Notes under the pieces: generated by a model
Told to the model about the DNA's origin: nothing
What the model saw: only the letters and a program-made list of their open reading frames with translations
Databases searched by the model: none
Shown: piece after piece, positions 9,136 through 62,335 of the stretch
How positions within the stretch are numbered: position 1 is the first letter of the stretch
Layout of the letters: each line of letters begins with the position of its first letter
Program-made: the position numbers and the translations under genes
Origin: Psammoneis japonica
Lineage: Eukaryota
Assembly (NCBI GenBank): GCA_008632985.1
Contig: QPGO01000142.1
Span: 124,001-188,000, forward strand
Length of the DNA stretch: 64,000 nucleotides
Direction: 5' to 3'

Positions 9136-9194
9136 TCTACTCTCTACGAGTAGTGCTTCTGTACATTTTAGATTTAGAAGTATGAAGGAACTCT

Positions 9195-24594: not shown

Positions 24595-25000
24595 TGCAAC
24601 TTTCTCTCTGGGGTCCTTGAGGTTGTGAATGCAAACTTTCTTGCTGGTGTTCCTGACGTTCCATGCATGCAAACTTCTCGAGCTTGCATTCCGGGTGGGG
24701 GGCCACAAACTTTCTCACAGGGGCTCCTGATGCTCGCCTCTAGAAACTTCTCGCGCTTGCGTTCCTGGGGGGCTGCAAACTTCTCTCGGGGCTTCCTGAC
24801 GCTCTACAAACTTCTCGTGCTTGCGTTCCTTGGGGGCTGGAAACTTTCTCGTGTTGGTTCCTGGTGCTCTACAAACTTCTCGTGCTTGCTTTCCTGGGGG
24901 GCTGCAAACACTTTCTCGCGGGGTTTCCAGACGCTTTGCAAACTTCCTCACGCTTGTGTTCCTTGGGGCTGCAAACTTTCTCTGGGGGTTCCTTGGGTGC
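24595..25000. repeat. Minisatellite: ~32-bp monomers arranged as ~65-bp dimers, about 6 dimers
   Basis: Alternating gcaaactttctc..ggg.tcctgacgctct and acaaacttctcgtgcttgcgttcctgggggct units. Confidence 0.85.
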
Positions 25001-32798: not shown

Positions 32799-33459
32799 TT
32801 GTGATGAAATGCTTTGCGCTTCCATTGCGTGACATGAATGTGTGTGATGTTGGCAATGGAGATGTGATGACGTGAGCTGTAGCACGTGACAGAGACGTTC
32901 AAAAAGACTCCACAAAAATAGGTAAATAAGTTCAAAAATGAAACTGAAATTTTGCTACCATCATGGTATCTTGAATCTACGCAACCATTTCAATGACACC
33001 GTGTAAATGGGGCTCCTAGTTGAGAGGAAAATGGGGTTTGCCATTCCCTGACAGCGGGGGAAAAAAGAATAACGTGTATGTTCACCTCCACATATCACCA
33101 CATTGTGCCTTTTCTGAAACTGAAGTCGTCCGTAATGGGGCACTCGCCCCATCTCGTGCACATGTTTCGAAAGATGACAATTGGAGACTAACAAATGTGG
33201 TGCCCAGCAAAGGCTCTACAAAATTTCGCACCGCCATTGCAGTTTTATGACGTACACAGTACATCATTGTTTCCGATAACCTTGCCGGTGCGTTGTTTTA
33301 ATTCTGGTGGACACTGTCTGACGCTCCATGTGATCACAGTGGAAATGGTGCCGTTTGAGTTGAGGAATGAAATGAAGTTAGTTGGCCTGGGTTCCACAGT
33401 TTTCCCTGAGACTAAAAGGTGCTTCGTAAGAGGTGTGCTCGTTTTAGTCATCCTTCTTT

Positions 33460-36400: not shown

Positions 36401-36880
36401 GCAGCTGTCACATGCCATGATCATCACGCCCAAAACAACCCCTGCAGTTCAGCATTCACACTTTTGCCTCTGAGCACTTCTTGACATTTACCCATGATGT
36501 GCTGATTGCTTGCATGTGCACAAACTGCCTGCGCCTCAGAGCAGCATCATGACTTCACCGCTGGCTGGGCAGCTTTTCTGTGCGCACCGTCTCTCGCTGG
36601 TGGTGCACTCGCCATGCTGGAAACTTTTCAGCACTGACACATCAGAGCAGCCAGAGCCACGTTCTCTGCTCCACTCTGCTGGAGAGGGCTGTGTCTGTTG
36701 TCAGTCCTCCAGGGCTTTTTATCCTTTGTGGCAGAGGAAAAGCACGAGCTTGGCGCTTGGCACATTTTGTGTGCACTCGGATCTCACTTTCGCGCGAGCG
36801 CCGCGGTGTCGCGCGACTCGAAGATCTGCCGCTCTGCCCTCTCGCCCGCCTCGTCTCTCGCGTGTCGACGATGAACGATG
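33460..36880. other. TpA/CpG-depleted block of unidentified decayed sequence
   Basis: Same dinucleotide signature as the other blocks. Ends at a CpG-rich patch (36790-36880) upstream of the thioredoxin gene. Confidence 0.85.
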
Positions 36881-38153: not shown

Positions 38154-39734
38154 ATGGTTCCAAACCCGACGCATCGACTCATACCCTCAGGTTCCGATCC
38201 ATACGCGTATCCGTATTTTCATTCGAACGGAACAGCACCTCTTCTTTATGAATTAGTGGACCGGTTTGTTGCAGACGCTAAAGGCGAAAGACTTCGTCTA
38301 CTCAAGCGCATTCAATCTAGATGCATTGTGAAACCTACAGAAATTTCGTGGAGGGACAGTTGCGGCGAAACCGCTTTGCATCGTTTGTGCCAGAAAACGT
38401 CCAATTTGCAAGACGAAGATGCCGTGCACATGCTTTTGCACGTGGCTCGAGCCTTTGTTGTTGCATGCCCACAAGCCATTACGTTTCAAAACAATTGGAA
38501 AGAGACGCCCTTGCATCTCTTCGCGACTCATTGTTTCATGACGGTTGCCTGTTGTAATGACGGTCAGCAACAAGAACGCCTTCTCGGACACGTAGTGGAC
38601 CTTGTTCGGTTGCTTCTTAACGAACACGTTGCAGCTTGCCCAAACTACATGGGGTCGTTGCCGCTCCATACAGCGTGTGTGCTTGCGGAAGCTGTCAAAA
38701 AGAAAAATGGCCAAGTCGTGAACCATAATGATGACTGGGCCGTTGTGCTCCATACGGCAATCATAAGGCACCTTGTGAAACTGAATCCAGACGCGTTGTA
38801 CGTTGCCGATCGCTCGGGAATGACACCCCTGCATCACGCTGCTTTCTCCGAGACCTGCAGTCCTCAGGTAGTTCAGGTGTTGCTGGACCAGATATTGTCA
38901 CAAAATACAAACGATCGGCAAATGAATATAGAATCAAGAACAGAGTTATGCAAAGGTGCTTTGGCGAGACTTAGGAGGCTCTATTTTGAATCTGGCGGCC
39001 CCGGGAAAACTCCTATCGATTACATTGAACGCGCTTTGAGAAGCAGCCTGGAAGGTATTCCAAAGGAAAGGATGCAACGGTGCATACGCAACTTTGATGC
39101 TTTGTGGACGAAAACTGTTCTCTTGATCCAAACCGGTGGCACGCTGATGCTATCTACCAAACCTGCCCAACAAGAACCGAAACTTGTTCATTCTAGCATG
39201 ATGCTGAGCGCTTCACTTGCAGTCGTTTTGGCGACAGTTTCACTGAATCAGCCTGAGTTGCTTCAAGCAGACGGAATTACCAACAAGACACCCTTGATCA
39301 TGGCACTGTTGAACACACCCGTGGTTGACTCTGAAGCCATCCGACGTGACCTCGAATATGATCACTTGAAGAGGCCATTTTATGCTTGTTATTGCAACGG
39401 GGATTGGATCCAAAGACCCCACATGGTTGATTCGATTTCTCAACGCATTTTGTTGAGTCATTTGATTGCTACCGAGCCTCGAGCTGCTCGCGTGGTGGAT
39501 GGCAACGGTCGATTGCCTTTGCATTACGCCGCCGAAAATGGTGTCGGTTGGCAGAATGGCTTGGAAATACTGTTTGAAGCAGAGCCACGCGCTGTTGCTG
39601 CTCGAGATCCGGTGACACACCTATACCCGTTTTGTTTGGCGGCAACCGCAAGCAGAAACGAACCGGACGCTTCTCAAGTGTCCGACATTTTTGAGTTACT
39701 CCGAGCTGATCCTTGTGTGTTGAACTTTTCGTGA
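38154..39734 (+). CDS. Ankyrin-repeat protein
   Basis: GETALHRLC, ETPLHLFA, GSLPLHTAC, GMTPLHHAA, GRLPLHYAA, and C-terminal DPVTHLYPFCLAA...IFELLRADP. Confidence 0.88.
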   Translation: MVPNPTHRLIPSGSDPYAYPYFHSNGTAPLLYELVDRFVADAKGERLRLLKRIQSRCIVKPTEISWRDSCGETALHRLCQKTSNLQDEDAVHMLLHVARAFVVACPQAITFQNNWKETPLHLFATHCFMTVACCNDGQQQERLLGHVVDLVRLLLNEHVAACPNYMGSLPLHTACVLAEAVKKKNGQVVNHNDDWAVVLHTAIIRHLVKLNPDALYVADRSGMTPLHHAAFSETCSPQVVQVLLDQILSQNTNDRQMNIESRTELCKGALARLRRLYFESGGPGKTPIDYIERALRSSLEGIPKERMQRCIRNFDALWTKTVLLIQTGGTLMLSTKPAQQEPKLVHSSMMLSASLAVVLATVSLNQPELLQADGITNKTPLIMALLNTPVVDSEAIRRDLEYDHLKRPFYACYCNGDWIQRPHMVDSISQRILLSHLIATEPRAARVVDGNGRLPLHYAAENGVGWQNGLEILFEAEPRAVAARDPVTHLYPFCLAATASRNEPDASQVSDIFELLRADPCVLNFS

Positions 39735-39769
39735 GCTGGAAACGTGTCCATATGGGTTACGACATTGCC

Positions 39770-40859
39770 TCAAGCTCTACAACAACAGGTGCCCAACAAA
39801 TGGCCTAGTCGTCTTCTGCGGTCTTGCCGAGGTACAAGACAGTCGAAAGGAAGCCACCTCAACCAGTCCAATTCCTTCTTTATCGCTGCGACAGTCGTTT
39901 CCATACAGATCAACTAACTCCATTGTGCATGAAGGAATGTGAAGAGCCATACGGTTTTATTATCGTGGATGTTAACGGGGCGCTCCTTGGTGGTCAAGAA
40001 GAAGAGTTTGGCACAGGTTTTCAGTCGATCTTCCCAACAAGACTCGTCGCGGAGGACTATCGGCTTTCGTTTTGATCGCATCCTAGTAGAAAAGCGAAAC
40101 GTGATGCGCAAGGTCGCCGAGTTAGCCATGATATGAATTCTTTTCTTTCCCACGGTGACCATCCCAATGTGGCCGGTCTTGTCCTTGCTGGAAAAGCAGA
40201 CTGTAAAGACGACCTTGTCCAGAGTAGCCACTTTGAGCGTCTCGTCTCCGCGCACATGTTGTGGCTTGTTTGGAAGTGTCGTTTGGAGGAGAATGTTGAT
40301 TTGCCCAGGCAATTGACAAAAGTGCTGAAACGATCGGATGCGTCACGCTGGCTCGCGAAAAGCGTCTGTTGGAGAACTGTTTTGAACACGTCGAGCGCGA
40401 TACAGGAAAGCATTGTTACTCCATAGAGGAAACCTTGCATGCTTTAGAAATGGGAGCCGTGAAAGATTTGATTGTATGGGACGGTCTCGATGTTACCCGC
40501 TGCGAGATGCAAAGCAAAGAAAAAGGGGAGAAAGTGGTTTCCTCTATCTTCGAGGAGCAGGAGGAAGCAATGAGCGTCGCTTCGTTTGCAGTTACCAAGA
40601 CAGAACCACTCCTGGATTGGATTGTCGACCATTACAGCAATTTTGGCTGCAACTTTTGTCAGACAGAAGCGGAGTTGGAAAACAGTTTGCCGCAGGATTT
40701 GGCGGAATTGGTGGCATAGTGAGGTGGCGAGTAGATTTTGAGTCATTGAACACTGGTAGCAATAAGGAGGAATTCATACCTAAACGAGAGACCGCATTTG
40801 ATATGGAGGAGAAGGGCAAGGATGACTACGATTTTGAGGACGGAGATTTCGCGTTTTAA
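39770..40859 (+). pseudogene. eRF1 pseudogene copy A (5' deleted, frameshifted, GGQ changed to GGL)
   Basis: LYRCDSRFH, YGFIIVD, ALEMGAV, GFGGIGGIVRW. Several indels relative to copy B. ggaggactatcg at 40051-40062. Confidence 0.9.
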
Positions 40860-44575: not shown

Positions 44576-46050
44576 ACATCAACAAGACTTCGCGCAACAC
44601 TCGCAACATTCAAGACAACAGACAACCGCTCGCAAAATCTCGCTCCCACTTTACACGTTGCAGCTGATGTGGTGTTGTTCATTCGTCCCACTCGTTTTCA
44701 TCGTGGAACCTCCTGATGACACAGGGTGTCTTTCAGGCATGTGCATCGGTCTGATTGCCCCCCCCCTCTTTGGGCAAGAATGGGGTGTGTGGTTTGCTTC
44801 TTGAAGACACCAGACCAGCCACAAGGAGCTTGCAGTGGAGAGCTGGCAAGCAAAGCACTGGGCTGCGCCACAAGGCACTGGCTGATGGGACAGCATTGGG
44901 CAAGCACAACTGCAAGCATTTTCCTGAGGGCACTTTGCACCACATGTGACAAAGCCAGAAACATGGACTGTGAGAAACACATGCAGAGCCAGGTTTTGCT
45001 CAGCTGGCCACCCAGAATTCAAGCAGGGGTGCAGCCGGAATGAAGAAGGCTGCAGGTCAATTTGAGGTCCCAGTGGGAACTTGCTTTGCATGTTTGTTAA
45101 CAGCCTGCTGCAGAAGCCGTGGCTGCACTGGAAACCCAAAGGTGGCGGTGCGTGATGGGGTGGATCTTGCAAATTCTCTCAAGATTTTGTGGTGCACGGG
45201 GCCAAAATTTGGGTGCAGCATCCACAGATGCTTTGGGAGAGATGCTGTGAATTCGTCAAGGCAGGCACTTCTGACAGCATGGGTGGGGAAGGCCAGTGCT
45301 TGTTGCCAGGGATCTTTGTGAAGATCTTTTAAAGAGGATGACACTGCGTTTTCTCACTTGGAAACTTCAGAGAATTGTTTGGGCACAGTGCTGGGGCCAA
45401 ACCCGCCAAAGTGTGCACTGAATTTTGGAGAACAAAGAAGACACAGATCCGCGGCAGTGGCCACCAAGCTGGCAGGGCAAGGCTTGGAAAACAAGCTGCC
45501 CAAAAAGCCATGATGGGCTGGCAGCAAAGCACTCCTCACAAAAGATGCTGCTGTCAAGCTGTGCCACAGACTGGCACAACTCCACAGTTCTCCAGCACGC
45601 TGTGGGAGCTTTGCTGCCAAGCATGTAAAACCGCAGCACCTCAAGTCACAGACAAGCTGCTTTGCAGGCAGAAGCCCAGCCAAGGGCCGCAAGTTGACAG
45701 CCCCACAGCGTCTTCTCTTTTTCTCCTTTTTCCTTCTTTTCCTCTCTCTCTTCTCCTTTTCTCCTTTTCAGTTTGTTCTTCTGGGCTGCCTCCGGCGGCC
45801 ACCTCTTTCATTCTTCCTACATGCCAAAATCTCCAACAAGAGAGAAGGAAGGAAGAGAGGAGAAGAATGCAGCAATGGCGGAAGTGAGTGCAAGATGCGA
45901 GACGTTGTTGCGTTTTCGTGGCGTCGAAGACAGAGGACATCAGCCCATCGCGCATAAAAAGATACGAAGGTTGATTTTATTTAGGCGGCATCGCCCCCCA
46001 TTTCCCATCTTCCATCTTGTCCTTGATTCGAGATGCAACATGGGACAGAA

Positions 46051-49000
46051 TCACAGTTGCAATGATGTGTCTACATTTGCAGGCTGCTTTGATGAGCAAT
46101 GATGTGGTGCTCTTCCTCGAGCAGCCACCCCCAACAAGTTTGTTTTTGAAAGGTGAAAATCTCGTGCTCGGAAACAACAGAATTTTTGAGTCAGACCCGA
46201 CTGCAGATTCGGCGGCATCTGCAACGGTGGCAAAAATGTTGGCAAACTGGTCCAAAGAGGAATCGGCACGCAACATGGAAGGGGTCATGGCACAATCGGC
46301 ACTGGTGTTGGCTTTCGTGGCAAGACCACCTCCTCTTGCAAATTGGAAGGTTTCATTTTTTTGGCGCGCGGTTCCTCAGACGGCGGCGGCTGCAGTGACT
46401 TGGATTTTTTTTGAATGGGTTCTCCATGATCGGCATCGGGTTGGAACGAGTCGAGTGTGGATTTTTTGTGCCACACTTGTTGCACATGCATCTGTCCGAA
46501 TCTTTTTTGGAGGATGCTGCTGTCGCGCCGGCGGGTGCCTTCCTCGACTCAAGCTCCTCTCTCAAACGTTCAAGTTGCTTTGGGCAAGCTGAAAAATGTT
46601 GCTCTCCATTGTCCTGTGCTAGCTCTCTAACGTTCTCATGCACAGGATGTTGAACTCCAGCTTTTTGGGCCAGCTTGTTGTTGCAGTCGAGGCGGCTGTG
46701 ATTCAGAAAGGTGGGGACGCCTCGAAAGGCGTGCGGAATCTTGGCGCGCTCGTCAGCCGTCATGTCATCAACTGGGAGACGCTGTCTTGTTCCTGTGTTG
46801 TGCTCGCATGTTCCAGCAAGACAGAGAGCATCAATGAGGGTGCTTCTGGAACCGGTGTTCCCAAAATGCTTGACGACGTGATGGCATTTTTCTGGCTTCG
46901 ACTCGGTGCCTGTGGTGGTGACGCACGTGTCTAGCTTGCACTTCGACCATTTTGAAGGGTGCACAACACGGTGCAAGTCTTGACGCGCAAGTGGCTCGTC
47001 AAGTCCACGAGCTGACGCTGTTGCATTTTGCACTGCCAACTCAGTGTCTTCCATGAAAAGGGGCTTGCCAGAATCAGGGTCATGTCGTCCGCCGGCTTCA
47101 GCTGCTCCAGGAGACGCCGTGCACTTGTGGCGATTGAACCACGCCTCAAGATTTTTGTTTCGAGTTTCTAGAGGGTAAGTCCACCTTCGTGTGCACTTGT
47201 TGTAGTTCTTCCATTTCTTGCTGTTCTTGACATCTTCAATTTCTTCCCTTGCATTCTTCTTCCCACCGAGTCTCCCAAAGACAAGTGCATCGACCACACG
47301 CGACTCGTCAGATTCGTCGTTGCATCGTGCACAGTCCTTCAAATCACGGACTGCACGACAACAATCAACATGAGTGGCCCGCAGTGTGTGAACAATTTGG
47401 TTGGTCCAGCGCCAAAGGCCAAGCCGACGTGCAACATCCTGACCAAAAATTTGTTTCCAAAATTCTTCTTTGTTTGGCCAGGTGTCCGAGTGGTGAACGC
47501 GAGGCTTCACGTTTGGACGTCGAGCAAATTGCTCCGCGGCATGTGCGTGATCTTTTGTTTCAAGTGTTGGCACAACTGCCGCCACTCCAATCTCCCCCGT
47601 CTCACTTGCCATGGTGAACAGTCCCTTGCCATCCGCTTCTCTGTAATTTTTCAGTTGATCAAAAGTGTGGTCTGATGCGACACTTACACGACAACCAACG
47701 GACTGGATTTCTCTGGTGTGCCGCATGTTGTCGCTGATGCCAGTCTCGGTAAGATCTGACTTGCGCACAGCATCGTGCACGTCGCGCACATTTTGTCCTG
47801 TTGGCCCATGTCGACCCATCCAGTCCTCAAATGCTGATGATGGGCTTGTTGCGTCGCTGCCAGCATCAACCGACTGCAAAAAATGCCGCTCTTCCCTGTC
47901 AAGAAAATTGCGTCCTCGTTGTTGATGCAAGAAGGCGGGTGTGTCGTCACCATTGCTGCACTTCTGCATGGAGTGGTCGATGCATCGTGTCGTTGGTGAG
48001 GTTAGATGAAACGATGGATTGGCGTCAGCATGACGTAGATCCACGGGATGACAAAGTTGCAGATGTCTTGGAAGCTTTTTAAGCAGCTTGGCGTCATTGC
48101 CTCTGCACTTGCAACCGCATTTATTGCATTTGTAGCACACAGACGTTCCCCAATCAGCAGTGCCACTTACATCAAAGATTGGAGTCGGCGAATGCTCCCT
48201 CTTGATGTCAAACTGTTGATGGATCATCTCACCATCTTCGCACCCATCAACACAAGGCAAGCAGACACCAAGCACAACAAGTTCCCAATGGAGAATGTGG
48301 ACAGTCACTCCTTCAATCTCGGCATGCATGGCATCAGGAGCCATGGATGCATCATCCCGAGGCACGGCAAATGACATGGTGCCGGCAGGAAAGTTCTTCT
48401 GGTGCCATTTCAATTTCTTGGCATTCACGTCTCCACCCATGATCTCATTCGAGTTGGCATGAAACCGAGATGGACACAAGTCCAGAAGACACACAATCAA
48501 AGCCTGAATGGGCGCGGGACAAGGAATCTTCTTTTTTTTGCACGTCTCAATTCGTTTCCGGATCTCTCTCTTTAGCACCGGTGGAGAAAGAAGATCTTCT
48601 TCAATGTCATTGTTAGAATGCTCCGTGCCATTTGACGTGACAGTGCTGATGGCAGCAGCAGCAGCAGCATTCGCACTCAACGTGACAGTGCCAGCAGCAG
48701 CAGCATTCGACGAGACGGCGGTTGCAGACGGCTCAGTGTTTTTTGAAGCCCTGGTGCGAGAGCAAAAGAGTGTCTCCATGCCTTCCTCAGTTGGAGCCTG
48801 ACAACCCGGTGGCTTTTTTGCGTTCTTTCTTGCGCCACCAGTGATGAAGCGATGGACAGCCGCGTTTCGCTCGGTGCTCATGTTCTTTCCACAGTGGATG
48901 GATTTTGGGCAGGTCGTGTCATGACCCTTTTTGTAGGACGGCCCTTGTTTGCACCTTTTGCACTCAACAAGCTTCTCTTGAGCAGTGTGACTGTTTGGCA

Positions 49001-49070
49001 GAGTCAGAATTTGCGATTCTGCCTCTGCCGCCGGTGATGTTGCAAACCGAGGCGCATTTTTCCCCGACAA
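46051..49070 (-). mobile_element. Zisupton-like (KDZ group) transposase, heavily missense-mutated; C-terminal FCC..RGR..H..C motif in a shifted frame
   Basis: YKCNKCG..DAKLLKKLPRHL (DUF6729-like), SDHTF, ETGEI, SDTWP, DPDSGKPLF and GTESKPEKCHH..F occur in Zisupton order. Only 5 Tyr in 905 aa. Termini not found. Confidence 0.7.
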
Positions 49071-50824
49071 CTTAGCGATTCCAGAAAAAGCTCGCTCCTT
49101 TGCTTTTTTCGTGGCTGCCTTTCAAGTCTGAGACTGAACACCCATGGTGCTGGGAAGCTTGCGGGAGCAATGCTTCTCCATTCTGCTGCAATTCCTTCTC
49201 TCAGAACTCTCTTGTGCAGGTCGGCACTGATGATGAGTGAGATGAAAAAAGACTGGAGGAGTTTGAATTTTGTGTGTGGTGTCTTTGTCAGAGCGCAGGT
49301 GCTCAGACTGTGGTGCATCCGTCTGAGATGGATGAACCGAGGTGGCTGTGTCTGAGTTGCATTGATCGTCAAGCAATGATGATGTGCATTCTTTCAGAAA
49401 GCCCCAAGCATTGCAACGTGTGTTCTTGGAATGAAGCGTTCTGATTGGTCCAATCTTCCATCGGCAGGGGGCTTTCGTCGGAGGGGCTACGTGGCCAATG
49501 ATCGATGACGTCACAGCATCCCTGCGCCGCCGCGTGCATTGTCTTCTGCATTGCCGCGAGCTTCAGACAACGTTGCTGAGGCAGGTTTACTTGTCTGAAG
49601 CTTGCTGTGCATTTGGCATTTTTGGCTCAAGTTTCAAGTGCCTCTGTGGAGTGTGTGTTCTCTCAGTTGAAAAGGACTCTCCAGAACTCCCAGTGCCAGG
49701 CCCTGCACAAGCGAGGGATTGTGCGCCAAAGTCCTGCGCAACTTTCTTGAGGCCCGCATGTTTGAATGACTGAACAACAAGCACCATCACTTGCTTGAGC
49801 AGGTGACAGCTGCAAATGCATGCAACATTGAGTTCTGTGGCTGTCACTTGTTTCCAATCACTTCTGTGCAGCTGCTTGCTCATCACAAGTGTGTTTCAAT
49901 GTTTCGGTGCAATGCCACATAGAGTCCTGGTGCGTTTCTGCACATTGGTGCATTTTTGCACATTTCCCAGAAACTCAAAAATGTGCCCTGCACATTTAGC
50001 TGGTCCTTGACAGTGCTGCATGTTTGCCATGCAGCATTCCAGCATGAGAAGGTGTTCTCACCGGAGATTCTCGCCTCTCAACCTTTGGGCCGACACTGGC
50101 ACAAACGGCAAACCGGGCGGTGCCACAGCAGCAGCACGCACAGCAATTGCTCTCTTGGTCTGAAAACAGTCCATGCATTTTTCATCACTGAGCACAATGA
50201 GCAATGTGAGGGAATTTGTTTTCTGGCACTCACTCACCACCTGGTGAGGGAGACTCCCCAAAGGGCCCCAAAGGGGTGCAGTTGGACACCACTTGAATGT
50301 TTGGAGCCCTCTGGCATTTCTTGACATGCAGTTGAAGATGGGCTGCATCATGCTTTCCAATGAGTGTAATGAGTGGTGTGAGGGAACTTGCTTTCTGGTG
50401 CTCACTTGCCACCTGGTGAGCAAGACTCCCCAAGGGTGCAATTGGACCACTTGAGTGTTTGGAGCCCTCTGGCATTTCTTTCAATTAAAGGTGGGCTGTG
50501 TCATGCTTTCCATGGCCTGAAGCTGGCTGATTGCTGTGAGTGTTCAATCAGAGAACAAATGATGTGGACACAGTGAAACAAGTGACTCAGCTCAGCTGGA
50601 GCAGTGTGTGGAGAGACATTCTTGCATGTGCACAATGCTGTCACCTTCATGTGTGGGTGCTGACGAATGTCGCCACAGTGATGTGGTCACCAATGGGTGA
50701 GGCAACCAGGGTGTGGAACTCATGCACACTTGGAGTTGCCACAGTGTGCCAAACATGACCAGCTCTCCCTCTCCATTTTGCTGAAAATGGCTGACAAAAC
50801 TGCAACCAGAATGTCTGCCACAAC

Positions 50825-51172
50825 AGCTCTGGGGCATCAAGACATGAGATGCAGAAACATTGAAAGGAAAGACACTTTTGAATCCTGGTGTGGCACAGAA
50901 CAATGATTCTCTCTCAAGAGAGATGATGCACCATCACTTGTCCCCTGTGCATTGTTTTTTGTTTTGTTCTCACCCTTTGGAGTGAGTCATTTGGTTTGCA
51001 TGATTTGTCTTTCAGCATCAGGAGGTGCCTGTCATGTCGTTGGTTTGAAGATTGTTCTGGCACCACAGGCAACCCCCATGGCCACTGCAGACTGCTGAGG
51101 CAAGTGCAGAGAGAGTGTTGCAAAAGACCTTGCAGGATTCCCTTTTGGTGACATTGACTTGCTGGTTCAACA
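50825..51172 (+). repeat. 5' LTR of the Copia element (start approximate)
   Basis: Homologous to 57768-58116; both end ...gacttgctggttcaaca. Confidence 0.75.
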
Positions 51173-54100
51173 TTCACTCCAAAGAGGCTCAAGCAAAAAT
51201 GGCAAGTGCTTGTAACTTCTGGCCTGCATGCAGCCAACAACTGAACACTGAGACCCTGCACTGTGAGTGGCATGGGAGGTGACAGGAACCAAGTCTGAGA
51301 GGTTGTGGCCATGGAAGAGGTGACAAACATCACAGGTCTTTCAATGCAAACACAAGTGCCACATTGAAGAAATCCCTGATGGCACCCAATCTGTCAAAAG
51401 GAGGCAGCCTGGAGAAGGTGCAAGAGAAAAAGCAAGAGGACAAAGAGCTGCAGTGCAAGCACAAAGTGGAGCTGCATGACTGCCATGTGAAGGCAAGGCA
51501 GTTTGATGAGAACAAAGCAACAACATTCTCCAAGATGCTGGATGGCTTTTGCACCAAGCAAATGAGGCAGAGAGTGCAAGATGATCCAACCAATTCAACA
51601 ACCAGGGCTGATCCAATCAAGCTGTTGAAGCTGATCCAGACCCTTGCATTCAACTCAATGAGAGGCCAACATCCATTCTGTGCACTTGTCAAGTCTCTGA
51701 AGAACATTTTAGATGTGAGACAACAAGAAAATGAAGGAACAGGCAATTGCTCATCAACATTTAAGAACCAGCATGACACTGCGAGCAAAAGGCCAGAAAA
51801 AATGTCAGATGGATTGGTGTTTGAGACATGGGTGACACATCTGTTCACAGAGAACATTGGTGATCACTGTTGCAAGAGCCTCAAGGAGAGCTTCATGAGA
51901 GACTGCAATCTGGGCAAAGACACCCTTCCAAAGACTCCAGAGAAAGCAACAGATGTGTGACTGAAGCAACCATCCAAAGGACAATCATCCCCAAGCAATC
52001 ATGTCAGGAGAAGAAATGACAGCCAAGGAGGCAATGAGAAAGACAATGGCAACAATGACAGCAAAAATGACAAGGGCCAGAGCCATGCCCAGACAAGAAA
52101 CCAGGGCAACACTGCACAATGTGCCACTGCTGTGGCAACAATGTTGCACATGGCAGTTGGTTTGAGGCTGCCAGAAGGAAACTGGACATTGGGGGACAGA
52201 GTCATGCACAGACTCAGAGTGGAGAAGAAGACCATTCATTGGTGGAAAGCAACAGCACAAGCATTGACATCACAAGATCTGACAGACTGACCCATTCCAG
52301 CCAAAGCAAAGGTCATGCATGGAATGGGCTGCACAGCTGGCAAATGAGAAACCGCAGAAGAGAGCATGAACCAGATGACGTGGTTCCAACTGTGGAATGG
52401 AATGCCACAGGGTGTGCACCAAGAGGGAGGCAGCTGACACTGAGTGAGCACTCATGTGTTGTGGAGTGTGAGAAATTCAAAACAATTTTGCACTCAAATC
52501 AGGTGAAGAATCTGTCAATTGTGCCTGAAGACATGGACAAGATGGTGGCAATTTGGGGACCACCACCAGATGTGACAAAAGGCAATGCCAAACACATGCA
52601 TCATTCCCACAAGAGGAATGACATGACAGTGATTCCACCTGACTGAGTCTCATGAGAATCAGAGAGGCAATGTGACTCTCTGCATTGGCATCATGGAAGC
52701 GTGCACAGTCATGAAGATGCAGCGCAAAATTGACAAGACAATCAAGAACCAATCAAGTGTGACACTGAGGTCCAAGAAGCACATTGATGTTTGGTGCAAC
52801 GCACTGGACACAATCCTTCAACAGCACTGCATGGCTTCATTCAAGATTTTGTGAAATGCAATCCCAAGTTCATGAAGATGCTGGCAAAAGTTGCTGATGG
52901 CATGAACCTGGAACTGCTTTCCACAAATGCTGTGGAGCATGTTCTGGAAGTTGAGCAGAGCATTGAGACTGTCAAAGAATGAACTTGTGCCACTGTGCAT
53001 CACCTGCCACACAAGACAACACCCAAATTGCTGTGCAAGCATGCCATCACAGAGACCACTGTCATGACAAACGTGTGCCTGCAGAAGGAAGGAATTTCCA
53101 ACAAGGGCAGATTGAAGAAATGTGTCTGATGGAAAGGACCAAGGATGTGGTCATGCTGATGTTCCTGTGATGGAGAAACAAGATGGCAGCACAAAAGGGT
53201 GGATGGTTGGAGGTGGGGAGCCAACAAGAAAATTGGCCAAACAAGGATGAGTCAGCCAGTCTGACAGCATTGTTCATTGGAGTCATGATGACTGCAACTG
53301 TCAATGCCATGAGGAAGAGTGTGATGAAATGACTGCTGATGTGCCAACTGTGTTCACACAGACACAAGTGACAGATTCAGACTGAGGAGGGTGAAAAACA
53401 GATTGTGATGAAGATCACAGTAAAGTTGGTCAACTTGCCAGTGAGCATCAGCTCCAGCCTGTGTGAACCACATGTGGTCCTGGAAAACGAGCATGGAGTC
53501 CTCTGCATCCAATTCATCAGAGCAATTTGTGGCATGTTGGTCACAGCTCCACCATGGTGCAAACAGCTTCAAAAAGACTTTGAGAAAACAGGGTTTAAGT
53601 TCAACCCATGCAACCCATGCACTGTCAACTGGGCAGTCAATGGCAAGCAGCAAACTGCCTGTTTCCTGTTTCCATTTGAACAACCTGATGTTGAGCCACA
53701 AGAACCCAAAAGCAAACAACAAGTTTCCAAGCTGGCTGAACAAAATGTGTGGAAGCCACATGGCAAAGTCATTGCAACTCAAGGAAAAAGGCATGAGTGC
53801 CTGGGGATGACCCTGAACTTCAGTGAAAAGGGCAAGGTGAAGGGCAGTGTGACTGACTGTGTCAAGAAGATGTCAGACATCAGCTCCTGGAGAAGATCAA
53901 GAGTGCAGATGTTGCCATGGCACCAGCTGGAGAAAAACCATTTGAGGCTGGTGGGGTGATGTTGCCGACCAACAAAGCAGAGACACACCACACCTGGGTG
54001 GCCAAGGGGCTGTTTGCATCCAAGAGAGGCCACACAGATGCACACCCCACCATTGCAGCATTGTGCACGTGAGTCAAAGAGGAGCCTGCAAACAAAGATT

Positions 54101-57100
54101 GGGACAATTTGGTCTGCTGTTTAAGACATTTGAGTCAGACACAAAATGAACAGTCACTGCATTTGGTGCAGATGGCTTGCAAACAACAAAGTGGTTTGTG
54201 AGTTCACCATTCATGGTGCACTCAGCTTTCAAGCACCACACACAGGAGGAGTTGTGACAATGGGCAATGGAGCACTGCAGGCCATGTCAAAGTGCCAGAA
54301 GGTCAACATGACATGAACCAGCACAGAGGCCAAACTTGCATGAATTGATGATGTGCAATTGATGGACCATGATCCTTTGGACAAAGTGTTGTTCATGGAG
54401 CACCAAGGGCATCCAATTGACAAGAACATCCTGCATCAGGATGACAAGAGCATCGTCATTCTGTTGGAAATGAATGGGCACAGGAGGGCAGACAAGAGAT
54501 CCAGAGCACTTCACATTTTGCATTTCTTTGTTGCCAATCAGATTGAGAAGGGCAGCTTGAGAGAACACAGCATTGCCCAGCAGATGATGTGCTTGGAGAC
54601 TTCATGACAAGAAAGCCATTGCACATCAAGAAGTTTTGCAAGTTCAAGCAAGCCGTTGTGGGTGGCAAAGAACAAGCATGACAGGAGTGCATCCTGTTTG
54701 TGACATCAGATGAGAACTCTGATGCATGTGGGTGAAAGACACCCCTGTTCAATGAGAGATGGGCAACAGTGCCTCAGATTTGACAGAACACAATGCACAA
54801 CATCAGCAATTTGTTCATCAACAACAGCCATCAACCATGAGTGAGTGAGGTCAATGAAGCAGTGAAACTCAATGATGAGTTGGGCACACTCTGTGATGTG
54901 ATTGTGCAACAGTGCTCAGAAAATTGCTGGAAAGATGTGATGGCCATGACGGGTGTGTCACAAATGCCAAGAGACAGTTGTTGAGTGCAGATGTTGACAA
55001 GAGAATGCCAAGGGCTTGAAATCCACATTTCAAGGAAACAAGTGATGAACCAACACAATGGCTTGGGGGCAACAAGAGCCAATTGAGTTGTGACCCTTGC
55101 ACCCACCATCATGATGTTTTGGATGTGCGCCAGATGATTCTGGCAATGAAGGACAGCAGAAGGAGTCAGGTGTTGCAGCATGACTAGATCCCATTCTTGC
55201 AGGTGGGCTGGGGCATGCCCTGTGTGTCAAGAGGCATGAGCCAACAAAGATTGCATGTGAAGATGTTTGCAAGTGGACTGATGAAACACAAATGCATGTC
55301 TGCCACTGCACTGATGTTTTTGTTGTTGCACATGATGGTCTGAGTGCACCACACAAGATGGCCACCATGCACCAATGGAGCTTGCACAAAATCAAGGAGC
55401 TTTGGCAGATTGGCATGTGCTGAGCCTCAAGGCAGGGCAAGGTGTGCATCTCCCACCATGGGACTTGATCGTTTGTAGATCGACGGCCGCAACGTCGATC
55501 AAGATGAGAGTGCAGTCACACCACTGTCAAACAGTGCTCATTTCGATGGTTGTGCTGGATTTCTCGGCAATGTTGACTGTTGTGCCGCATTTGGACACAC
55601 CAACAAGCAGTGTGTTTGCTGACTTTTTCTGCAGGGCTCTCACGACCGCTGCATGAATGAGTTTGCAATCACCAGGTTTGCCTCCACTGCAGATGATGTG
55701 ATGACCAGTGTCCAAGGAATGCACACGTGTGGGCAGCATCATTTTTGTTTCTGCTGTTTCTCATGACAGATGCAGAAAATGACATTGTGATTTCCAATGT
55801 CGACAATGCACCGTGTGCGACATGGAAAAGGAACAATGGAATGTTTTTTTTTCAAAGAGAGAAGAGGAGCTAATTTGTGTGGTGAGTGCAGTTGTTGGAC
55901 GCTGCAAACAATTGTTGGCACCTTGTTTGGAATGTTTTTTTCTTCCCTGTCAAAGCGACAGCAGCAATCACAGCACCTTGCTCATTTTTGCCCCATGGTG
56001 TCAATGCAGCTTGGCTGCGTGATGTGGCACGTGGTTTGCTTTATCACGGGACAGTGCGTGAAACCAAAAGTGCAATGGACAGGAGCTCCGAACCATCGGC
56101 GATCGGATCTGGAACCAGCTCGTCGAGCTCGTTCCAAATCCGTGCTCAAATGGATCGGAGCGGCTGTCCTTCGTTGCGTCTGTACGTCGTCCGCACGGAA
56201 ACTAATTTTACCACCATTGGACACTCTAACTGGCCAACCACCCCAATGGGCAATGAAGCACAGAAGCTCAACACATGAAACAGCACAGAGGCCAAGCATG
56301 CAGGAGTTGACAATGCAATGACCATGATCCTGTGGATGAAGTTGCTTGTGGAGCACCAAGGGCATCCAATTGACAACAACATCCTCACTCAACATTTGGC
56401 AGTTTTTTGTCACACCAGCCAGACTGAGAAGGGCAACCTGAGAGCACAGCACTGCCCAGCAGATGATGTGGTTGGAGATTTCATGACTGAGCCCATGTGG
56501 GGCAAGAGGTTTTGCAAGTTCAAGCAAGCTGTTGTGGGTGGTCAAGGATGAGTTTGACAGGAGTGCATCCTGTTTGTGACATCAGAAAAGAGTTCTGACA
56601 CATGTGGGTGAAAGATCCCTTTTCAACGAGAGATGGGCAATGCCTCAGACTCAACAGAACACAGTTTGCAACACCATTGATTTGTTCATTTAAGAGCAGT
56701 CATCAACCATGAGCAAGGTCACCAAACAATGCAGCTCAATGACAAGCTGGGCACACTGCATGACATGCTTGTGCAACAGTGGCCAGAGAGCTGCTGGAAG
56801 GATGTGATGATTGCAATGGAGACATTGCATGATGCCAGCAAATGGCTGTTGAATGTGGACATCAACAAGACAATGTTGAGGGCTTGGAGCCACACTTTGT
56901 GACAGCACATGATGAGCTGACACTGTGGCTCAAGGGAGGTGAGAGCCAACAGAGTTGCAACCCTTGCATCCATTGTGACATTTGGATGTGCACCAGATGG
57001 TTCTGGACACAAGAGAAAACAGAAAGAGTCAGCAGTGTTGGCACAGTGAGATCCCACATCTGCAGGCATTGAAGAGAGTGTGTGAAGATGTCAAGAAGTG

Positions 57101-57767
57101 GGCTGATGAAGCCACTGCCACACCAATGTTTTTGACACATGATGGTCCAAATGCACCACAAGAGATGATGGAAATGGATGGAATGTGCACAAGACCAAGG
57201 AACACTGGCAGATCATTGGATGTTGAGCCTCAAGGCAGGGTGAAGCATGTTGTCATCACTGCAGGAGCCACACAATGAGAGCAACAAGCACATGATTGAT
57301 GATGAGCACATTGCAGGTTCCAGGGGGCAGCAAACTGAAGCTGGTCCTGGACAGAACTGACATTGCAAAACTGAGTGAAATGTTCATGGTCAGTCATCCT
57401 GCACTTGACACAAGCAGAAAAGGCCCACTTGTGAAGCTCAACCCCAGGTGCCCGGAGGACACAGTGAGTCAGCATGGACTCACATGGGACAAGAGTGGCA
57501 TCATTTTTTGTGACAGAGAGAAGTCAGTGTTTTTCTTTCATTGTGTGGAGAATGTTCAAGACAGCACAGATGTGCTCAACAACACAGTTGATTTCTCTGA
57601 TGGGAGATGGCATGCCTGCATGCACCTCTGTGCTCTGTCTGACTAAGAAGAAGTCAGCATGGCAAGGCACTGAGAGAACCACGTGTGGGCATTGTGTGGC
57701 AGTTGGAACTGCTTGCAAGCAGAGTGGATGAATCAGTGGTTGAAAACATCAATGCAAGTGGGAGGAG

Positions 57768-58116
57768 TGTGTTGGGACATGTCAAAATGTGAGACCTGGA
57801 AGTGTTGAAAGGAAAGATGCTTTTGGATCCTGATGTGGTGCAGAGTGATGATTGGTGTCTTGGACAAAAGATTCACTGTTGCAAATCCCCCATCTGTTGT
57901 TTTTGTTTTGTTCTCACTCTTTGGAGTGAGTGAGTCATTTGGTTTGTGCAATTTGTCATTTGGCATCAGGAGGTGCATGTCACATTGTCAGTTTGAAGGT
58001 TGTTCTGGTGCCATGGGCAACCCATGGCTGCCACAGACTGCCAAGGCAAGTGCAATGAGTGTCACAGGAGACCTTGCAGGACTCCCTTTTGGCAACACAG
58101 ACTTGCTGGTTCAACA
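57768..58116 (+). repeat. 3' LTR of the Copia element
   Basis: Starts TG after the purine tract ggaggag and ends CA. Shares ttgaaaggaaaga, ttgttctcac.ctttggagtgagt and gcatcaggaggtgc with the 5' LTR. Confidence 0.75.
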
Positions 58117-59349
58117 GCTTGGTCATGTCACTCAGGTCAAGTGAGGCCTTGAGAAAGGCCACTGCATCCTTCTCATGAACATGATGATGGGAACCACACT
58201 TTGGACACTGCAGACCACCCAAAGTGGTGGCACTTGACTTGGTGCAGCATGATTGGCCAGCTGCACAACAGGTCATTGTGGTGGGTTCCTCAGGGTTGGG
58301 TGGGTGAGTGATGGTGTCCATTCTTCAGTCATCCTTGAGATGTGCCAAAACACTCTTTGCAAATGCTGGCAGATCACCCTGCTTGGCAAAGTGAGTGAAA
58401 AGGCCTGCAGCCTGGCAGGTCTTGCTCTTCTGGGTGGCAGCACCAACAACATGGGTGCCAGTGGCAATGATGATGGCACCTTGAGGGGGGCTGACAGGTC
58501 AAAGCCCAGCCAGCTGGCCTTGAGCTTGTCTCTGGTTCATGCCACATGACAAAAGGATCCTGCCGGCACCAGCTCACCATGTTGGGGACAGGAGGGCTGT
58601 GGGAGTCCAGCAAACCTTGTGGCCATGCAGTGCATGATTTGGCAACAAAATGATGACACCAACTCCTCATTGTCCAATGACTTGCAATCATCATGGCATC
58701 AAGGCAGAGGTGGTGCGGAGTCATCATGAGCATCCTCAGCATCCAGAGGAGGAGGGTCCTTGGCATCCTGAGGAGGCAGAGGATGATCTTGATGGGGTGG
58801 ATCCTCCCTGCCCCATGACATCAGGGTCATCCGCCACTGCACTCACATTGCAAAGCATTGGTGCAAACCAATTGTCTGGGGGATTCTTTCCCAGAGAATG
58901 CTGGCTCAGAGAGTTGTGTCTTGAGCCTCAGGAGGGCCATGGAGTGGAGCAGTGCCTGAGACAGTGGCATGTGTGGCAGATGCAATGATCTGACAATCAA
59001 CATTTGGTGGGCCCAGACTTGAGGAAAACTGCTGGTGGAGCCAGTGCGGAGCACACAACAAAACAAGCACAGAGTGCAACCCCCAGGTGTTGCTCTGACA
59101 GAACCAGAGCCAAAGGCAGATGCTCTGGCTTTTGGGTGTCCCCAAACTGAAGCACACAATGGGTTGAGTTGCATCAATTGGGCGACGATGCAACCACCAG
59201 CTAAAGCTTAACACCTCAGACTGATGGTGGAGCGCAGACAGTCTCTGCTGATGAGCAGCAATGCAGTGTTCGGTCAAAAGCACATCACAAACAAAGCTGG
59301 CCAGTGCCTCAACCCACTCATCTAGAATCTGCTGAGTGCAAATGCGTTG

Positions 59350-59740
59350 CGTGTGACATTGGGCCCACAGAATTCCACGTGCGAGATCCACAGCAAAAGT
59401 GTCAAGCAATGAACACACATGAGTCATCAGCAACAGAAAATGAGGCCATTTTGGGAATGTGTCTCCTCCTCCACACTTCAAGTGCACCACTTGCAGTTTG
59501 CCTGGGTGTGTTCTTCAAACATTGGAGAATGTGTCTGGCCCATTTTTGCACTCACAATGAAGAAAATAGAAAGCCTTTGGTTTTGCAAGGCACAAAGCAT
59601 GAAACAATTTTGTAGAAAATCACATGCAGAAATGCACATGCATGATGTGGGATGTGATCCAAAAAACTGTTGATGTCACAGTTCAGCAGCATGAGGTCCC
59701 ACCCAGAGAGCTGGAACGTGTCCGCAGCTCCACAAACCAC
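59350..59740 (-). repeat. Inverted copy of the 23895-24290 dispersed repeat
   Basis: Reverse-complement alignment by eye; homology stops at tgtgaca in both copies. Confidence 0.8.
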
Positions 59741-59750
59741 AGCGTGAAAA

Positions 59751-60500
59751 TCCATGCCATCTGCTGGTGCACTGGAGGCAACACCAGTTTCCTGACAATC
59801 AACCCAACACCAAAAAGAACCAAAAATGGTCTTGTGACACTCATGGGGGCCAATTGTTGTCAAGCTGTGGGCTCTGGCAATTTAGACCAATGTGGCAGAA
59901 TTTTGGAAGGAAAATCATCTCTCACAGATTTGACGGACAAACAGACAGATGAAAGACAGTGTCAATTGGCAGAACAGTGTGCAAGTGCTGTTTGAAGCAG
60001 AGCCATGCACTGTTGCTGCTCAAGATCTGGTGACACACCTGCACCCATTTTGTTTGATGGCAGCCGCAAGCAGAAACAAAACGAGCACGCACCTCAAATG
60101 TCCATGCCATCTGCTGGTGCACTGGAGGCAACACCAGTTTCCTGACAGTCAACCCAACACCAAAGAGAACCAAAAATGGTCTTGTGACACTCATGGGGGC
60201 CAATTGTTGTCAAGCTGTGGGCTCTGGCAATTTAGACCAATGTGGCAGAATTTTGGAAGGAAAATCTCTCACAGATTCAACGGACAAACAGACAGATGAA
60301 AGACAGTGTCAATTGGCAGAATGGTGTGCAAGTGCTGTTTGAAGCAGAGCCATGCACTGTTGCTGCTCAAGATCTGGTGACACACCTGCACCCATTTTGT
60401 TTGATGGCAACCGCAAGCAGAAACAAAACGAGCACGCACCTCAAATGTCCAACTTTTTGAGTTGCCCGGAGCTGACCCTTGTGTGTTGAAGTTTTCTTGA
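59751..60500 (+). pseudogene. 3' relic of an ankyrin gene paralog, with a near-identical 350-bp tandem duplication (59751-60100 / 60101-60449)
   Basis: WQNGVQVLFEAEPCTVAAQDLVTHLHPFCLMA versus WQNGLEILFEAEPRAVAARDPVTHLYPFCLAA in the intact gene at 39540-39734. Confidence 0.9.
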
Positions 60501-60784
60501 GCTTCAAACCTGTCTGTTTGTGGGTTTCGATGTCACCTCAAAGATCTCCTTGACCATGCCACGATCTGTTCCAACTTGCTGCAGCAAAGAAATTGTTCTC
60601 TCTGCTCTCTAGCTGCTCTTGTGTCCTGGTGGCATCAGGTTGTGATGCCACATCTTCATCCTCTCAGTTTGAGTCATGGGGTGACACGGGATTGAGTTGA
60701 TGCGTGCACGCCTCGGCCTCCTCGAGAAAGACAAGGCTTGTGAGGCTCATAAAAACACATTGTCGTTGCAACTTAAGAAGAACA

Positions 60785-62014
60785 ATGAGCACCTGCAAAA
60801 TGAAGCAACGTGAGACCAACAAGCAGATCGAGCTGCTGCGATTGAAGAATCAAACAAACGAACTGGAATCAGCCATCAGAAAGGGAACATCGATGATTTT
60901 GCCACTCATCCCGCCCGGCAACGCCCAGCTCATTCGTGCCACCAAGTTGCTCAATGACGAGTTGCGAGTGGCCACCAACATCAAATCTCGGGTTTAACAG
61001 GCAATCTGTCCAGAGCGCCATCAAGTCGGCTCAGCAGCGACTCAAGCTCTACAACAACAGGTGCCCAGCAAATGGCCCAGTCGTCTTTTGCGGTCTTGCC
61101 GAGGTGCAAGACAGTCGAAAGGAAAGGATGACAACTGTTGATCTTGAGCCCCCTCAACCAGTCAAATTCTTTCTTTATCGCTGTGACAATCGTTTCCATG
61201 TGGATCGCCCAACTTCATCATGTGTTGAGGAAGGTGAAGAGCCATGCGGTTTCATTGTCGTGGATGGCAACGGGGCGCTCCTTGGTTTGCTGCAAGGGTC
61301 GCGAAGAAGAGTTTTGCACAAGTTTTCAGTCGATCTTCCCAGCAAGACTCATCGCGGAGGACAATCGGCTTTGCGTTTTGATCGGATCCGAGTGGAAAAG
61401 CGAAACATTTGCATGCGCAAGGTCACCAAGTTGGCCATGAATTCTTTTCTTTCTCACGGCGACCAGCTCAATGTGGCCGGTCTTGTCCTTGCTGGAAAAG
61501 CAGACTGCAAAAATGACCTTGTCCAGAGCAGCCACTTCAGGCGTCTCTGCGCTCATGTTGTGGCTTGTTTGGATGTGTCGTTTGGAGGAGAACGTGGATT
61601 TGATCAGGCAATCGACAAAAGTGCTGAAACGATCGGATGCGTCACGCTGGTTCGCGAAAAGCGTCTGTTGGAGAACTTCTTTGAACACGTCGAGTGCGAC
61701 ACAGGAAAGCATTGTCACTCCGCAGAGGAAACCTTGCACGCTTTAGAAATGGGAGCCGTGAAAGATTTGATTGTATGGGACGGTCTTGATGTGACCCGCT
61801 GCGAGATGCAAAACAAAGAATCAGGGAAGCAAGTGGTTTCCTTTTTCTCCAAGTTGCAGGAGGAAACAAAGAGCGTCGATTCGTTTGCAGTTGCCAAGAC
61901 AGAACCACTCCTTGATTGGATTGTCGACCATTGCAGTAATTTTGGTTGCAACTTGGAGCTAATGTCAGACAGAAGCGGAGTCGGAAAACAGTTTGCCGCA
62001 GGATTTGGCGGAAT
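60785..62014 (+). pseudogene. eRF1 pseudogene copy B (frameshift at ~60995, 3' truncated)
   Basis: GTSMI, ATNIKSRV, LYRCDNRFH, RGGQSALRF, DVSFGGERGFDQAI, ALEMGAV. An extra T in gtttaac creates a stop. Confidence 0.92.
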
Positions 62015-62335
62015 TTTCGTTAGCAGTTAGGGGTGTCTATGGGGTCGTAAGGGACAACGGTTGTCCCATTCTTGTACGCTGTATTTTCAGCCAAATATCA
62101 TATCATGTCTTCAGTGAATTATGACTCAGCAATCCCCAATTATGACGATGCAACATTTAACAACATCAACATCCTTTCTGGCAATTATGACGCATCATCA
62201 CTTAACACTGCCAAAATAGAAATGGAAAATGGACAGACGCAGTGGCGGGAAAACTGCATGCGTGCATCAACGCATCATCAACCATCACCACACCGCGGCG
62301 ACACCATGGCCACTCGGTTCCGTTCATACCGCCAC

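Follow-up and report, generated by a model that had tools for sequence, protein, structure and literature searches.

In a 64,000-nucleotide stretch of Psammoneis japonica DNA (GenBank assembly GCA_008632985.1, contig QPGO01000142.1, positions 124,001 to 188,000 of the forward strand; hereafter the window), sliding counts show that the dinucleotide TA is nearly gone from sharply limited blocks. Which TA sites have been left in these blocks, and what has spared them? An earlier note on this DNA had claimed that the remaining sites mostly carry T two bases upstream or A two bases downstream, i.e., that TNTA and TANA are protected and the target is about VNTANB (N, any base; V, any base but T; B, any base but A). 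In this work, we have found that this bias is strong and that it is joined by a second effect of the directly adjacent bases. Overall, we think it probable that a TpA-specific mutator has acted on inserted or duplicated DNA, that its rate is set by the two bases on each side of the TA step, and that the residual TA sites are mostly survivors of the slow contexts. All positions below are those of the window.

Flanking bases of the residual TA sites

We have segmented the window with a threshold of at most five TA per 400 bases, which results in five TA-depleted blocks (Table 1). The flanking bases are numbered outwards from the TA step, −1 being the base directly before it and +1 the base directly after it, and a site is called protected if it has T at −2 or A at +2 (TNTA or TANA). 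In 49600–59750, the core of the largest block, for which 25–30 TA had been claimed with about four in five in the protected context, we count 25, and 21 of them are protected. The other four, three CTAA and one TTAA, all have A at +1. The bias had also been claimed for 700–9100 and 19100–25600, and the protected share is indeed 32/36 in block 774–8962 and 15/18 in block 19227–25185; the values for blocks 26686–28603, 33500–36767 and 44619–61828 are 9/16, 9/9 and 54/66, respectively. Pooled over the blocks, 119/145 residual TA (82%) are protected, compared with 388/826 (47%) in the non-depleted part of the window (odds ratio (OR) 5.2, Fisher p=8.1e-16). The latter share is close to the chance level of about one half that had been assumed, and the residual flanks depart clearly from it. 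In addition, the bias scales with depletion, from 9/16 in the least depleted block to 32/36 and 9/9 in the most depleted ones.

For each context, the number of ancestral TA was estimated as the blocks' own pyrimidine–purine (YR) sites multiplied by the TA share that normal DNA of the window shows in that context. On this basis, the survival of TA is 3.6%, 15.3% and 34.2% with zero, one and two protective flanks, respectively. The corresponding cumulative hazards stand at about 1 : 0.57 : 0.32, and they are alike in the blocks depleted in TA only and in those depleted in both TA and CG. T at −2 is found at 0.26 of all YR sites of the blocks and at 0.55 of their TA. When the positions are tested against the expectation from the blocks' own YR sites, the deviation is very strong at −2 (p~6e-12) and at −1 (p~3.5e-13) and marginal at −3 (p~0.04), while none of the positions −4 to −6 gives p<0.05.

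The effect at −1 means that only one part of the proposed VNTANB target holds. The influence of −2 and +2 is confirmed, but the bases at −1 and +1 are not indifferent. The symmetrised −1 base of residual TA is T in 0.43, C in 0.29, G in 0.19 and A in 0.09 of the cases, against an expectation of 0.21, 0.22, 0.33 and 0.24. In a joint logistic model of TA survival with G as the reference, the OR is 3.7 for T at −1 (95% interval 2.5–5.5), 2.2 for C at −1 (1.5–3.2) and 2.6 for T at −2 (1.8–3.9). Similarly, TTAA and CTAA had been regarded as mere exceptions; they do occur among the survivors, but they really belong to this second effect, as 19 of the 26 TA outside TNTA/TANA carry T at −1 or A at +1. 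Taking both effects together, at least one protective base (T at −1, T at −2, A at +1 or A at +2) is present at 138/145 residual TA and at 572/826 TA of normal DNA. If these four bases are summed to a score from 0 to 4, the survival rises through 1.6, 5.3, 27, 53 and 56%.

The loss is far from equal across contexts at the level of half-sites as well. Survival is 0.03 for AGTA, CGTA, GGTA and GATA, and it increases to 0.14 for TGTA, 0.25 for TCTA, 0.29 for CTTA and 0.35 for TTTA, with TATA at 0/42. The effect of T at −2 is present separately with C, G and T at −1 (p 5e-5, 2e-7 and 2e-5, respectively), and therefore CpG decay (CGTA to TGTA) or the change of TATA to TGTA can explain only part of the TGTA sites. 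That is, the fast class of TA sites is about VRTAYB (R, purine; Y, pyrimidine) rather than VNTANB.

As a side observation, TATA is missing from all TA-depleted blocks (0 half-site counts, against 42 in a smaller amount of normal DNA).

The same flanks leave no trace around other dinucleotides. Around AT, GC, AA, TT, TG and CA, the T(−2)/A(+2) context makes up 0.42–0.46 of the sites in depleted and 0.41–0.51 in normal DNA, i.e., its share is not shifted. The 137 surviving CG of the TA+CG-depleted blocks show no flank bias at −1 to −4 either (p 0.21–0.73). Based on the above analyses, the flank effect is graded, specific to TA and limited to two bases on each side.

Conversion of TA and CG to TG and CA

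We have compared the observed/expected ratios (o/e) of dinucleotides between the most depleted 23.5 kb, where both TA and CG are reduced, and 21 kb of normal DNA in the window. TA drops from 0.55 in normal to 0.04 in depleted DNA and CG from 0.98 to 0.13, while CA/TG rises from 1.22 to 1.88. The other values hardly move: AA is 1.14 in depleted and 1.18 in normal DNA, AT 0.87 and 0.96, and the GC content 0.485 and 0.474; neither TC/GA (0.99 vs 1.09) nor CC (0.89 vs 0.92) is depleted. Thus it is the two palindromic YR dinucleotides, TA and CG, that have been turned into TG and CA in the blocks. Since GC content, AA and AT are steady and only TA and CG drop with a gain of CA/TG, GC-biased gene conversion or drift is ruled out, as the earlier note had suggested for generic drift. 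On the plus strand, TG and CA counts are about the same in every depleted block, i.e., an overall strand bias is absent.

The loss of CG is narrower than that of TA and nested in it. Its o/e falls to 0.0–0.15 in 50000–59000, 19227–23500 and 34000–36500, whereas in 44.6–49.5 kb, 60–62 kb and 23.5–25.2 kb TA is lost and most CG is kept (o/e 0.5–0.97), and most CG is likewise kept in 26.7–28.6 kb. Within the largest block, the core (about 50000–55500 and 56500–59000) is also CG-depleted, and its flanks are depleted in TA only. This nesting implies that the TA and CG processes differ in reach or speed. A separate, narrower process strips CG from the block cores without flank bias; to judge from the dinucleotide pattern, it is presumably the deamination of methylated CpG.

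Direction of change

The direction of change can be read from a duplicated pseudogene, of which only one copy lies in depleted DNA. The duplicated unit comprises, besides an eRF1 pseudogene, the 3' end of the neighbouring ankyrin gene, with copy A at 39541–40709 and copy B at 59751–62015. In copy B, the ankyrin fragment is doubled in tandem (97% identity), and an extra 526 bases (60515–61040), including eRF1 domain 1, have no counterpart in copy A. Both eRF1 copies are frame-broken, but TA depletion is seen in copy B only.

In the main aligned part, the 25 TA of eRF1 copy A correspond in copy B to TG (8), CA (9), TA (4) and other dinucleotides (4), so that 17 of the 21 lost TA have become TG or CA. 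In the opposite direction, a single TA in the aligned columns is private to copy B (CA in copy A), and one more lies in an indel. The two copies differ at 22/53 TA columns and 19/127 CG columns, and at 53/751 (7.1%) elsewhere. The TA retained in both copies are ctcTAc, cttTAt, cttTAg and ttgTAt, the same four that had been listed before, and all of them carry T at −2. Human eRF1 serves as an outgroup for this pair: its HNY, NNY and GKY motifs read NIC, DHC and GKH in copy B, i.e., Tyr has been replaced by Cys or His, and at the NNY site copy A retains the Tyr (DHY).

A further test comes from a 922-amino acid (aa) open reading frame (ORF) in a stretch depleted in TA only. It has only two relatives among 5.8 billion clustered proteins, at 30–31% identity, and both are without a Pfam domain; the ORF itself has no Pfam match, and the label Zisupton given to it in the earlier note is not confirmed. 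Tyr makes up 0.5% of its residues, against 4.1% and 5.4% in the two homologues. Both homologues share a Tyr in 11 columns; there the ORF shows His six times, Tyr three times, and Cys and Phe once each. Its codon usage is skewed in the same way, with TAT 0, TAC 5, CAT 23, CAC 21, TGT 13 and TGC 26. All five Tyr codons are thus TAC, and four of the five are followed by A, in agreement with the TAC-A pattern described before. The frame is still open despite heavy mutation because the change of TA to TG or CA cannot make a new stop codon.

On comparison with these outgroups (human eRF1, copy A and the homologues of the 922-aa ORF), TA is the ancestral and TG/CA the derived state in the blocks. Avoidance of TA as an intrinsic property of transposable elements is refuted by the TA loss in the host-derived eRF1/ankyrin duplicate. 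Between paralogues that both lie in depleted DNA, TG in one copy faces CA in the other at 27/140, 19/63 and 12/68 of the sites occupied by TG or CA in each copy. Such double differences indicate that each copy has resolved an ancestral TA or CG independently, after the duplication.

Blocks, edges and neighbouring genes

The features of the window are collected in Table 1. The block edges are abrupt, at ~730, 9100, 19160, 33480, 36880 and 62020. At the last of these, TA density turns normal at ~62020 (within 61937–62040), only a few bases from position 62015, where the eRF1 homology ends. Hence at the right edge of the largest block the targeting seems to be bounded by the inserted or duplicated segment. 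Contigs from two public sequencing runs of one sample, aligned to 44619–61828, show that this region is repetitive.

Table 1 Positions of the depleted blocks and of other features in the window
Feature	Position	Strand	Remarks
Block	774–8962		TA and CG depleted; 36 residual TA; ORFs of at least 110 aa without Pfam match
Ribosome recycling factor	13122–13799	minus	N-terminal extension resembling a signal peptide, ending in SAF
HCO3- transporter gene	16799–19065	minus	Split by the gap of N
Assembly gap	18520–18988		469 N; inside the HCO3- transporter gene
Block	19227–25185		TA depleted; CG depleted only to ~23500; 18 residual TA
ORF with weak DDE_Tnp_4 match	26082–27380	minus	Below the Pfam cut-off; overlaps block 26686–28603
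Block	26686–28603		Partly TA-depleted, CG kept; least depleted block; 16 residual TA
Degenerate LMF1_C fragments	33447–33988	minus	Just inside the left edge of block 33500–36767
Block	33500–36767		TA and CG depleted; 9 residual TA
eRF1 pseudogene copy A	39769–40709	plus	Normal-TA DNA; reference for ancestral TA sites
Block	44619–61828		Largest TA-depleted block; 66 TA in 17.2 kb; real right edge ~62020
922-aa ORF	46356–49121	minus	Open frame; stretch depleted in TA only
Core of block 44619–61828	49600–59750		25 TA in 10,151 bases
Tandem copies of ankyrin-gene 3' end	59751–60541	plus	TA-depleted; source 39541–39773
eRF1 pseudogene copy B	61041–62015	plus	TA-depleted; right end of block 44619–61828

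Outside the blocks, the window holds ordinary genes with long uninterrupted frames, i.e., those for a Dymeclin, a plastid-type ribosome recycling factor, a 2-oxoglutarate (2OG) oxygenase, the HCO3- transporter, a thioredoxin protein and an ankyrin protein. The window has ~48% GC and is eukaryotic DNA. The closest protein clusters of the ribosome recycling factor are from diatoms (scores 0.97 and 0.95), while a like query with Dymeclin gave no informative taxon. The SAF at the end of the extension of the recycling factor is a motif of plastid targeting in diatoms, which fits import into a complex plastid.

We have scanned 121 of the 152 ORFs of at least 110 aa with Pfam; most of the remaining 31 are frames that overlap others outside the blocks, and a few belong to depleted blocks. 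In the blocks that are poor in both dinucleotides, the scanned ORFs give no Pfam match. At the left edge of block 33500–36767, two frame-shifted fragments resemble LMF1_C, the C-terminal domain of lipase maturation factor (29.4 and 21.8 bits, Pfam cut-off 34.2), and they may be the remnant of a host-type gene trapped in the depleted block.

Two repeats were observed besides. A very high-copy repeat lies at 58969–60116, with a summed word depth of 6,570–18,105 against 35–140 over much of the remainder of the block. Short tandem repeats of ~70–145 bases (76–77% identity) lie at 24630–25001, where the depletion concerns TA alone.

Strand of the flank effect and proposed mechanism

The earlier note took the strand symmetry of VNTANB as a sign of an enzyme- or DNA-shape-dependent step. 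In our opinion, a local context dependence does exist, but the argument from symmetry does not hold. TA is palindromic, and a site survives only if both strands escape; a flank preference acting on one strand thus looks symmetric among the survivors. As this is true of any one-strand preference, the symmetry is no evidence for recognition of the double strand or of its shape. What does fit a local, enzyme-like or repair-like step is that the bias is limited to two bases on each side.

We have looked for the strand of the flank effect with a k-mer balance. It takes normal DNA as the ancestral state and divides the loss of CG evenly, and under these assumptions 0.74 of the TA loss goes to TG for sites with T at −2 but without A at +2 (bootstrap 0.56–0.96), and 0.70 for sites with T at −1 (0.47–0.94). 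The balance suggests that an upstream T may suppress the change of TA to CA more than that of TA to TG.

In the mechanism we propose, the depleted blocks would be inserted or duplicated DNA that was struck by a TpA-specific mutator. Its action would replace T:A by C:G pairs at 5'-TA-3' steps, yielding TG and CA about equally. Its rate per site would peak at VRTAYB and would be several-fold lower with T (or C at −1) on the 5' side of TA, or with A (or G at +1) on the 3' side. Most residual TA would then belong to the slow class. We infer that the flank effect stems from the enzyme that mutates TA, or else from the repair of the resulting lesions, and not from the re-creation of TA. The chemistry is probably the deamination of adenine on either strand. 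On the other hand, a modification of the T of TpA would leave an identical footprint; 5-hydroxymethyluracil, a modified T, is enriched at TpA in dinoflagellate DNA.

Weighing of the explanations

Several observations weigh against this mechanism. The polarised sample is small: in the eRF1 and ankyrin pairs, 4/17 protected and 0/16 unprotected TA survive (p=0.10), where three copy-A sites among the 33 rows are counted twice, once per tandem copy, and two rows were left out because of a gap or poor local identity. In the Tyr columns of the 922-aa ORF, a protected context is found for 4/5 kept and 11/21 lost codons (p=0.36). Tallied by hand, the polarised one-sided sites of the eRF1 and ankyrin pairs split into seven that agree with the k-mer balance on the strand and seven that disagree. 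In the large-sample tests, the ancestors of the blocks are represented by normal DNA from the same window, consisting largely of genes. By our own arithmetic, ~1% back-mutation of the ~8,100 CA and TG sites would create new TA on the order of the 145 seen. Three of the five kept Tyr of the 922-aa ORF (Y330, Y493 and Y640) are at columns invariant in the three aligned proteins, and selection may have kept some of its Tyr codons. Finally, the Pfam scan found no deaminase domain among the 121 of 152 window ORFs of at least 110 aa that it covered.

The point on back-mutation leads to a different explanation, namely that the residual TA are mostly new, made from CA and TG by ordinary C to T changes, and that their bias is a context effect of these changes, e.g., at dipyrimidines (YCA to YTA), the typical context of mutation by ultraviolet light. 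It would account for the enrichment of pyrimidines at −1 (T 0.43 and C 0.29 where 0.21 and 0.22 are expected), and the 7.1% background divergence of the eRF1 pair is, by our own arithmetic, sufficient for one to two new TA per kb of CA/TG-rich DNA. Both TA private to copy B have A at +1 and neither T at −2 nor A at +2. But copy B has six TA in all, and the four others go back to the ancestor and carry T at −2 without exception. The effect of −2 is present with C, G and T at −1 separately, and we know of no C to T process that depends on T two bases upstream. Moreover, the blocks have kept their TC/GA and CC, the hazard ratios are equal in TA-only and more heavily depleted blocks, and with the mutator still active any new TA would meet the same flank-dependent filter. 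We thus consider a largely new origin of the residual TA unlikely. Much the same evidence bears on the idea that the ancestors of the blocks, transposons or other inserts, already had their TA in T- and A-rich flanks. Normal window DNA is mostly coding, and its context use may differ from that of these ancestors. Nevertheless, T at −2 is as rare as 0.26 at the YR sites of the same blocks while it reaches 0.55 at their TA, and the six control dinucleotides are unshifted. The bias recurs in five separate blocks, deepens with depletion (9/16 to 32/36 and 9/9), and is also found in the eRF1/ankyrin duplicate, whose ancestral contexts are visible in copy A. An inherited composition is therefore very unlikely to be the source.

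Selection might have produced the pattern if needed TA, such as those of essential Tyr codons or of splice and regulatory signals, were kept while the elements were active. The three residual Tyr at invariant columns and the open frame of the 922-aa ORF speak for it. However, an open frame is expected anyway, given that TA to TG/CA makes no stop, and a constraint on Tyr does not predict the base after the codon. Besides, the bias is equal or stronger in the TA+CG-depleted blocks without Pfam matches (T at −2 0.60, T at −1 0.52), and as the general cause of the bias selection is highly improbable. The remaining explanation is technical: N6-methyladenine read as G and 5-methylcytosine read as T. 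With some long-read base callers, modified A and C are expected to give errors of TA to TG/CA and CG to TG/CA, and the depletions of TA and CG do overlap here. Yet contigs built from exact 31-letter words of a public DNA run match depleted stretches of 794–2,567 bases with 0 differences, and the same run gives a 315 kb contig; both speak for accurate reads, although this run may be the assembly's own source. A 96% complete, flank-graded conversion with sharp edges at a duplication boundary, and with Tyr replaced by His and Cys in a long frame, is unlike consensus errors, and we give a base-calling artefact hardly any credence.

Comparison with known systems

The earlier note had suggested a comparison with the contexts of Pol eta and TadA. 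The WA motif of Pol eta, known from the A:T phase of somatic hypermutation, means A to G changes at an A after T, but WA includes AA as well. In the window, AA is intact in the blocks (o/e 1.14 vs 1.18) and an overall strand bias is absent, and Pol eta WA-motif mutagenesis is rejected as a misfit.

In fungi, repeat-induced point mutation (RIP) changes C to T at CpA and disables transposons. The blocks resemble its products in that repeated or duplicated DNA is hypermutated by transitions, with sharp edges, disabled transposons and copies hit independently of each other. The main text of a recent preprint on the alga Bigelowiella natans points out that RIP enriches TpA (10.64898/2026.01.13.699255), while TpA is destroyed here. 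In addition, only one copy of the eRF1 pair has been mutated, namely copy B inside the repeat block. For these two reasons, RIP of the fungal type is rejected.

The adenine deaminase ADAT2/3 (Tad2/Tad3), which carries out A-to-I editing of fungal mRNA, has one feature in common with the loss seen here. Its U/T 5' of the edited A is an absolute requirement, with C/U favoured at −2, A/G at +1 and G at +2 (PMC9600606). The TA core of the loss in the window, i.e., T before the edited A, fits this motif. The flanks appear to be opposite to the fungal ones: here Y before T, or by symmetry R after A, marks the survivors, and the substrate is DNA here and mRNA in fungi. Of the fungal motif only the core fits, and an enzyme of the TadA/ADAT type may or may not be involved.

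The nearest relative of the process is found in B. natans. As the main text of the preprint has it (Mettrop et al., bioRxiv 2026, 10.64898/2026.01.13.699255), TpA to TpG/CpA hypermutation was measured in mutation-accumulation lines of this alga, where two integrated viral regions yielded 231 de novo mutations; nearly all are A to G or T to C, and all of those are at TpA. The same text describes a long-term footprint of TpA-poor, CpA+TpG-rich clusters, including transposon-type genes, and proposes an ADAT2-like adenine deaminase (10.64898/2026.01.13.699255). Compared with this description, the window shows the same loss of TpA with a gain of CpA and TpG that spares other A/T dinucleotides, and the same direction, A to G or T to C at TpA and not C to T at CpA. 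In B. natans the change is limited to delimited regions of foreign or repeat-like DNA, and this may hold here too, where the blocks have sharp edges, are repetitive and include one weak transposase match; no viral gene was recognised in the window.

There are differences, too. Depletion is far deeper, with a TA o/e of 0.04 here against a Rho of 0.45 given for the nucleocytoplasmic large DNA virus (NCLDV) region of B. natans, and the targets in the window include duplicated host pseudogene DNA. The nested CpG depletion and the flank rule are new details in comparison with that report, in whose main text the words 'CpG', 'context', 'flank' and 'trinucleotide' are absent (10.64898/2026.01.13.699255). 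The host differs as well. B. natans is a chlorarachniophyte, whereas the host here looks like a diatom whose genes have long uninterrupted frames. Within the literature searched, nothing on TpA depletion in diatoms turned up, and the host appears to be new for TpA hypermutation.

What follows from this comparison? As far as is known to us, TpA-directed DNA hypermutation has so far been described in that one 2026 preprint and in one alga; the same signature near completion in a probable diatom would extend the process to a major group of the phytoplankton. With the flank rule, the TpA mutator gains its first quantitative fingerprint, and the rule can be compared with the published de novo mutations and with the in vitro preferences of candidate deaminases and thymine-modifying enzymes. 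Already now, it argues against Pol eta, as well as against an ADAT2/3 enzyme of fungal specificity. For annotation, there is a warning that hypermutated pseudogenes can pass as genes, since TA to TG/CA never makes a stop codon and long frames persist. Although we put it forward tentatively, it is quite possible that diatoms as well as B. natans own a DNA-editing defence which erases TpA almost fully from inserted or duplicated DNA and which reads about two bases on each side, being fast at VRTAYB and slow where the 5' side is T-rich or the 3' side A-rich. Such a preference is unlike that of ADAT/TadA, ADAR and Pol eta, and would therefore imply an undescribed DNA adenine deaminase or thymine-modifying enzyme that is shared across distant algal lineages.

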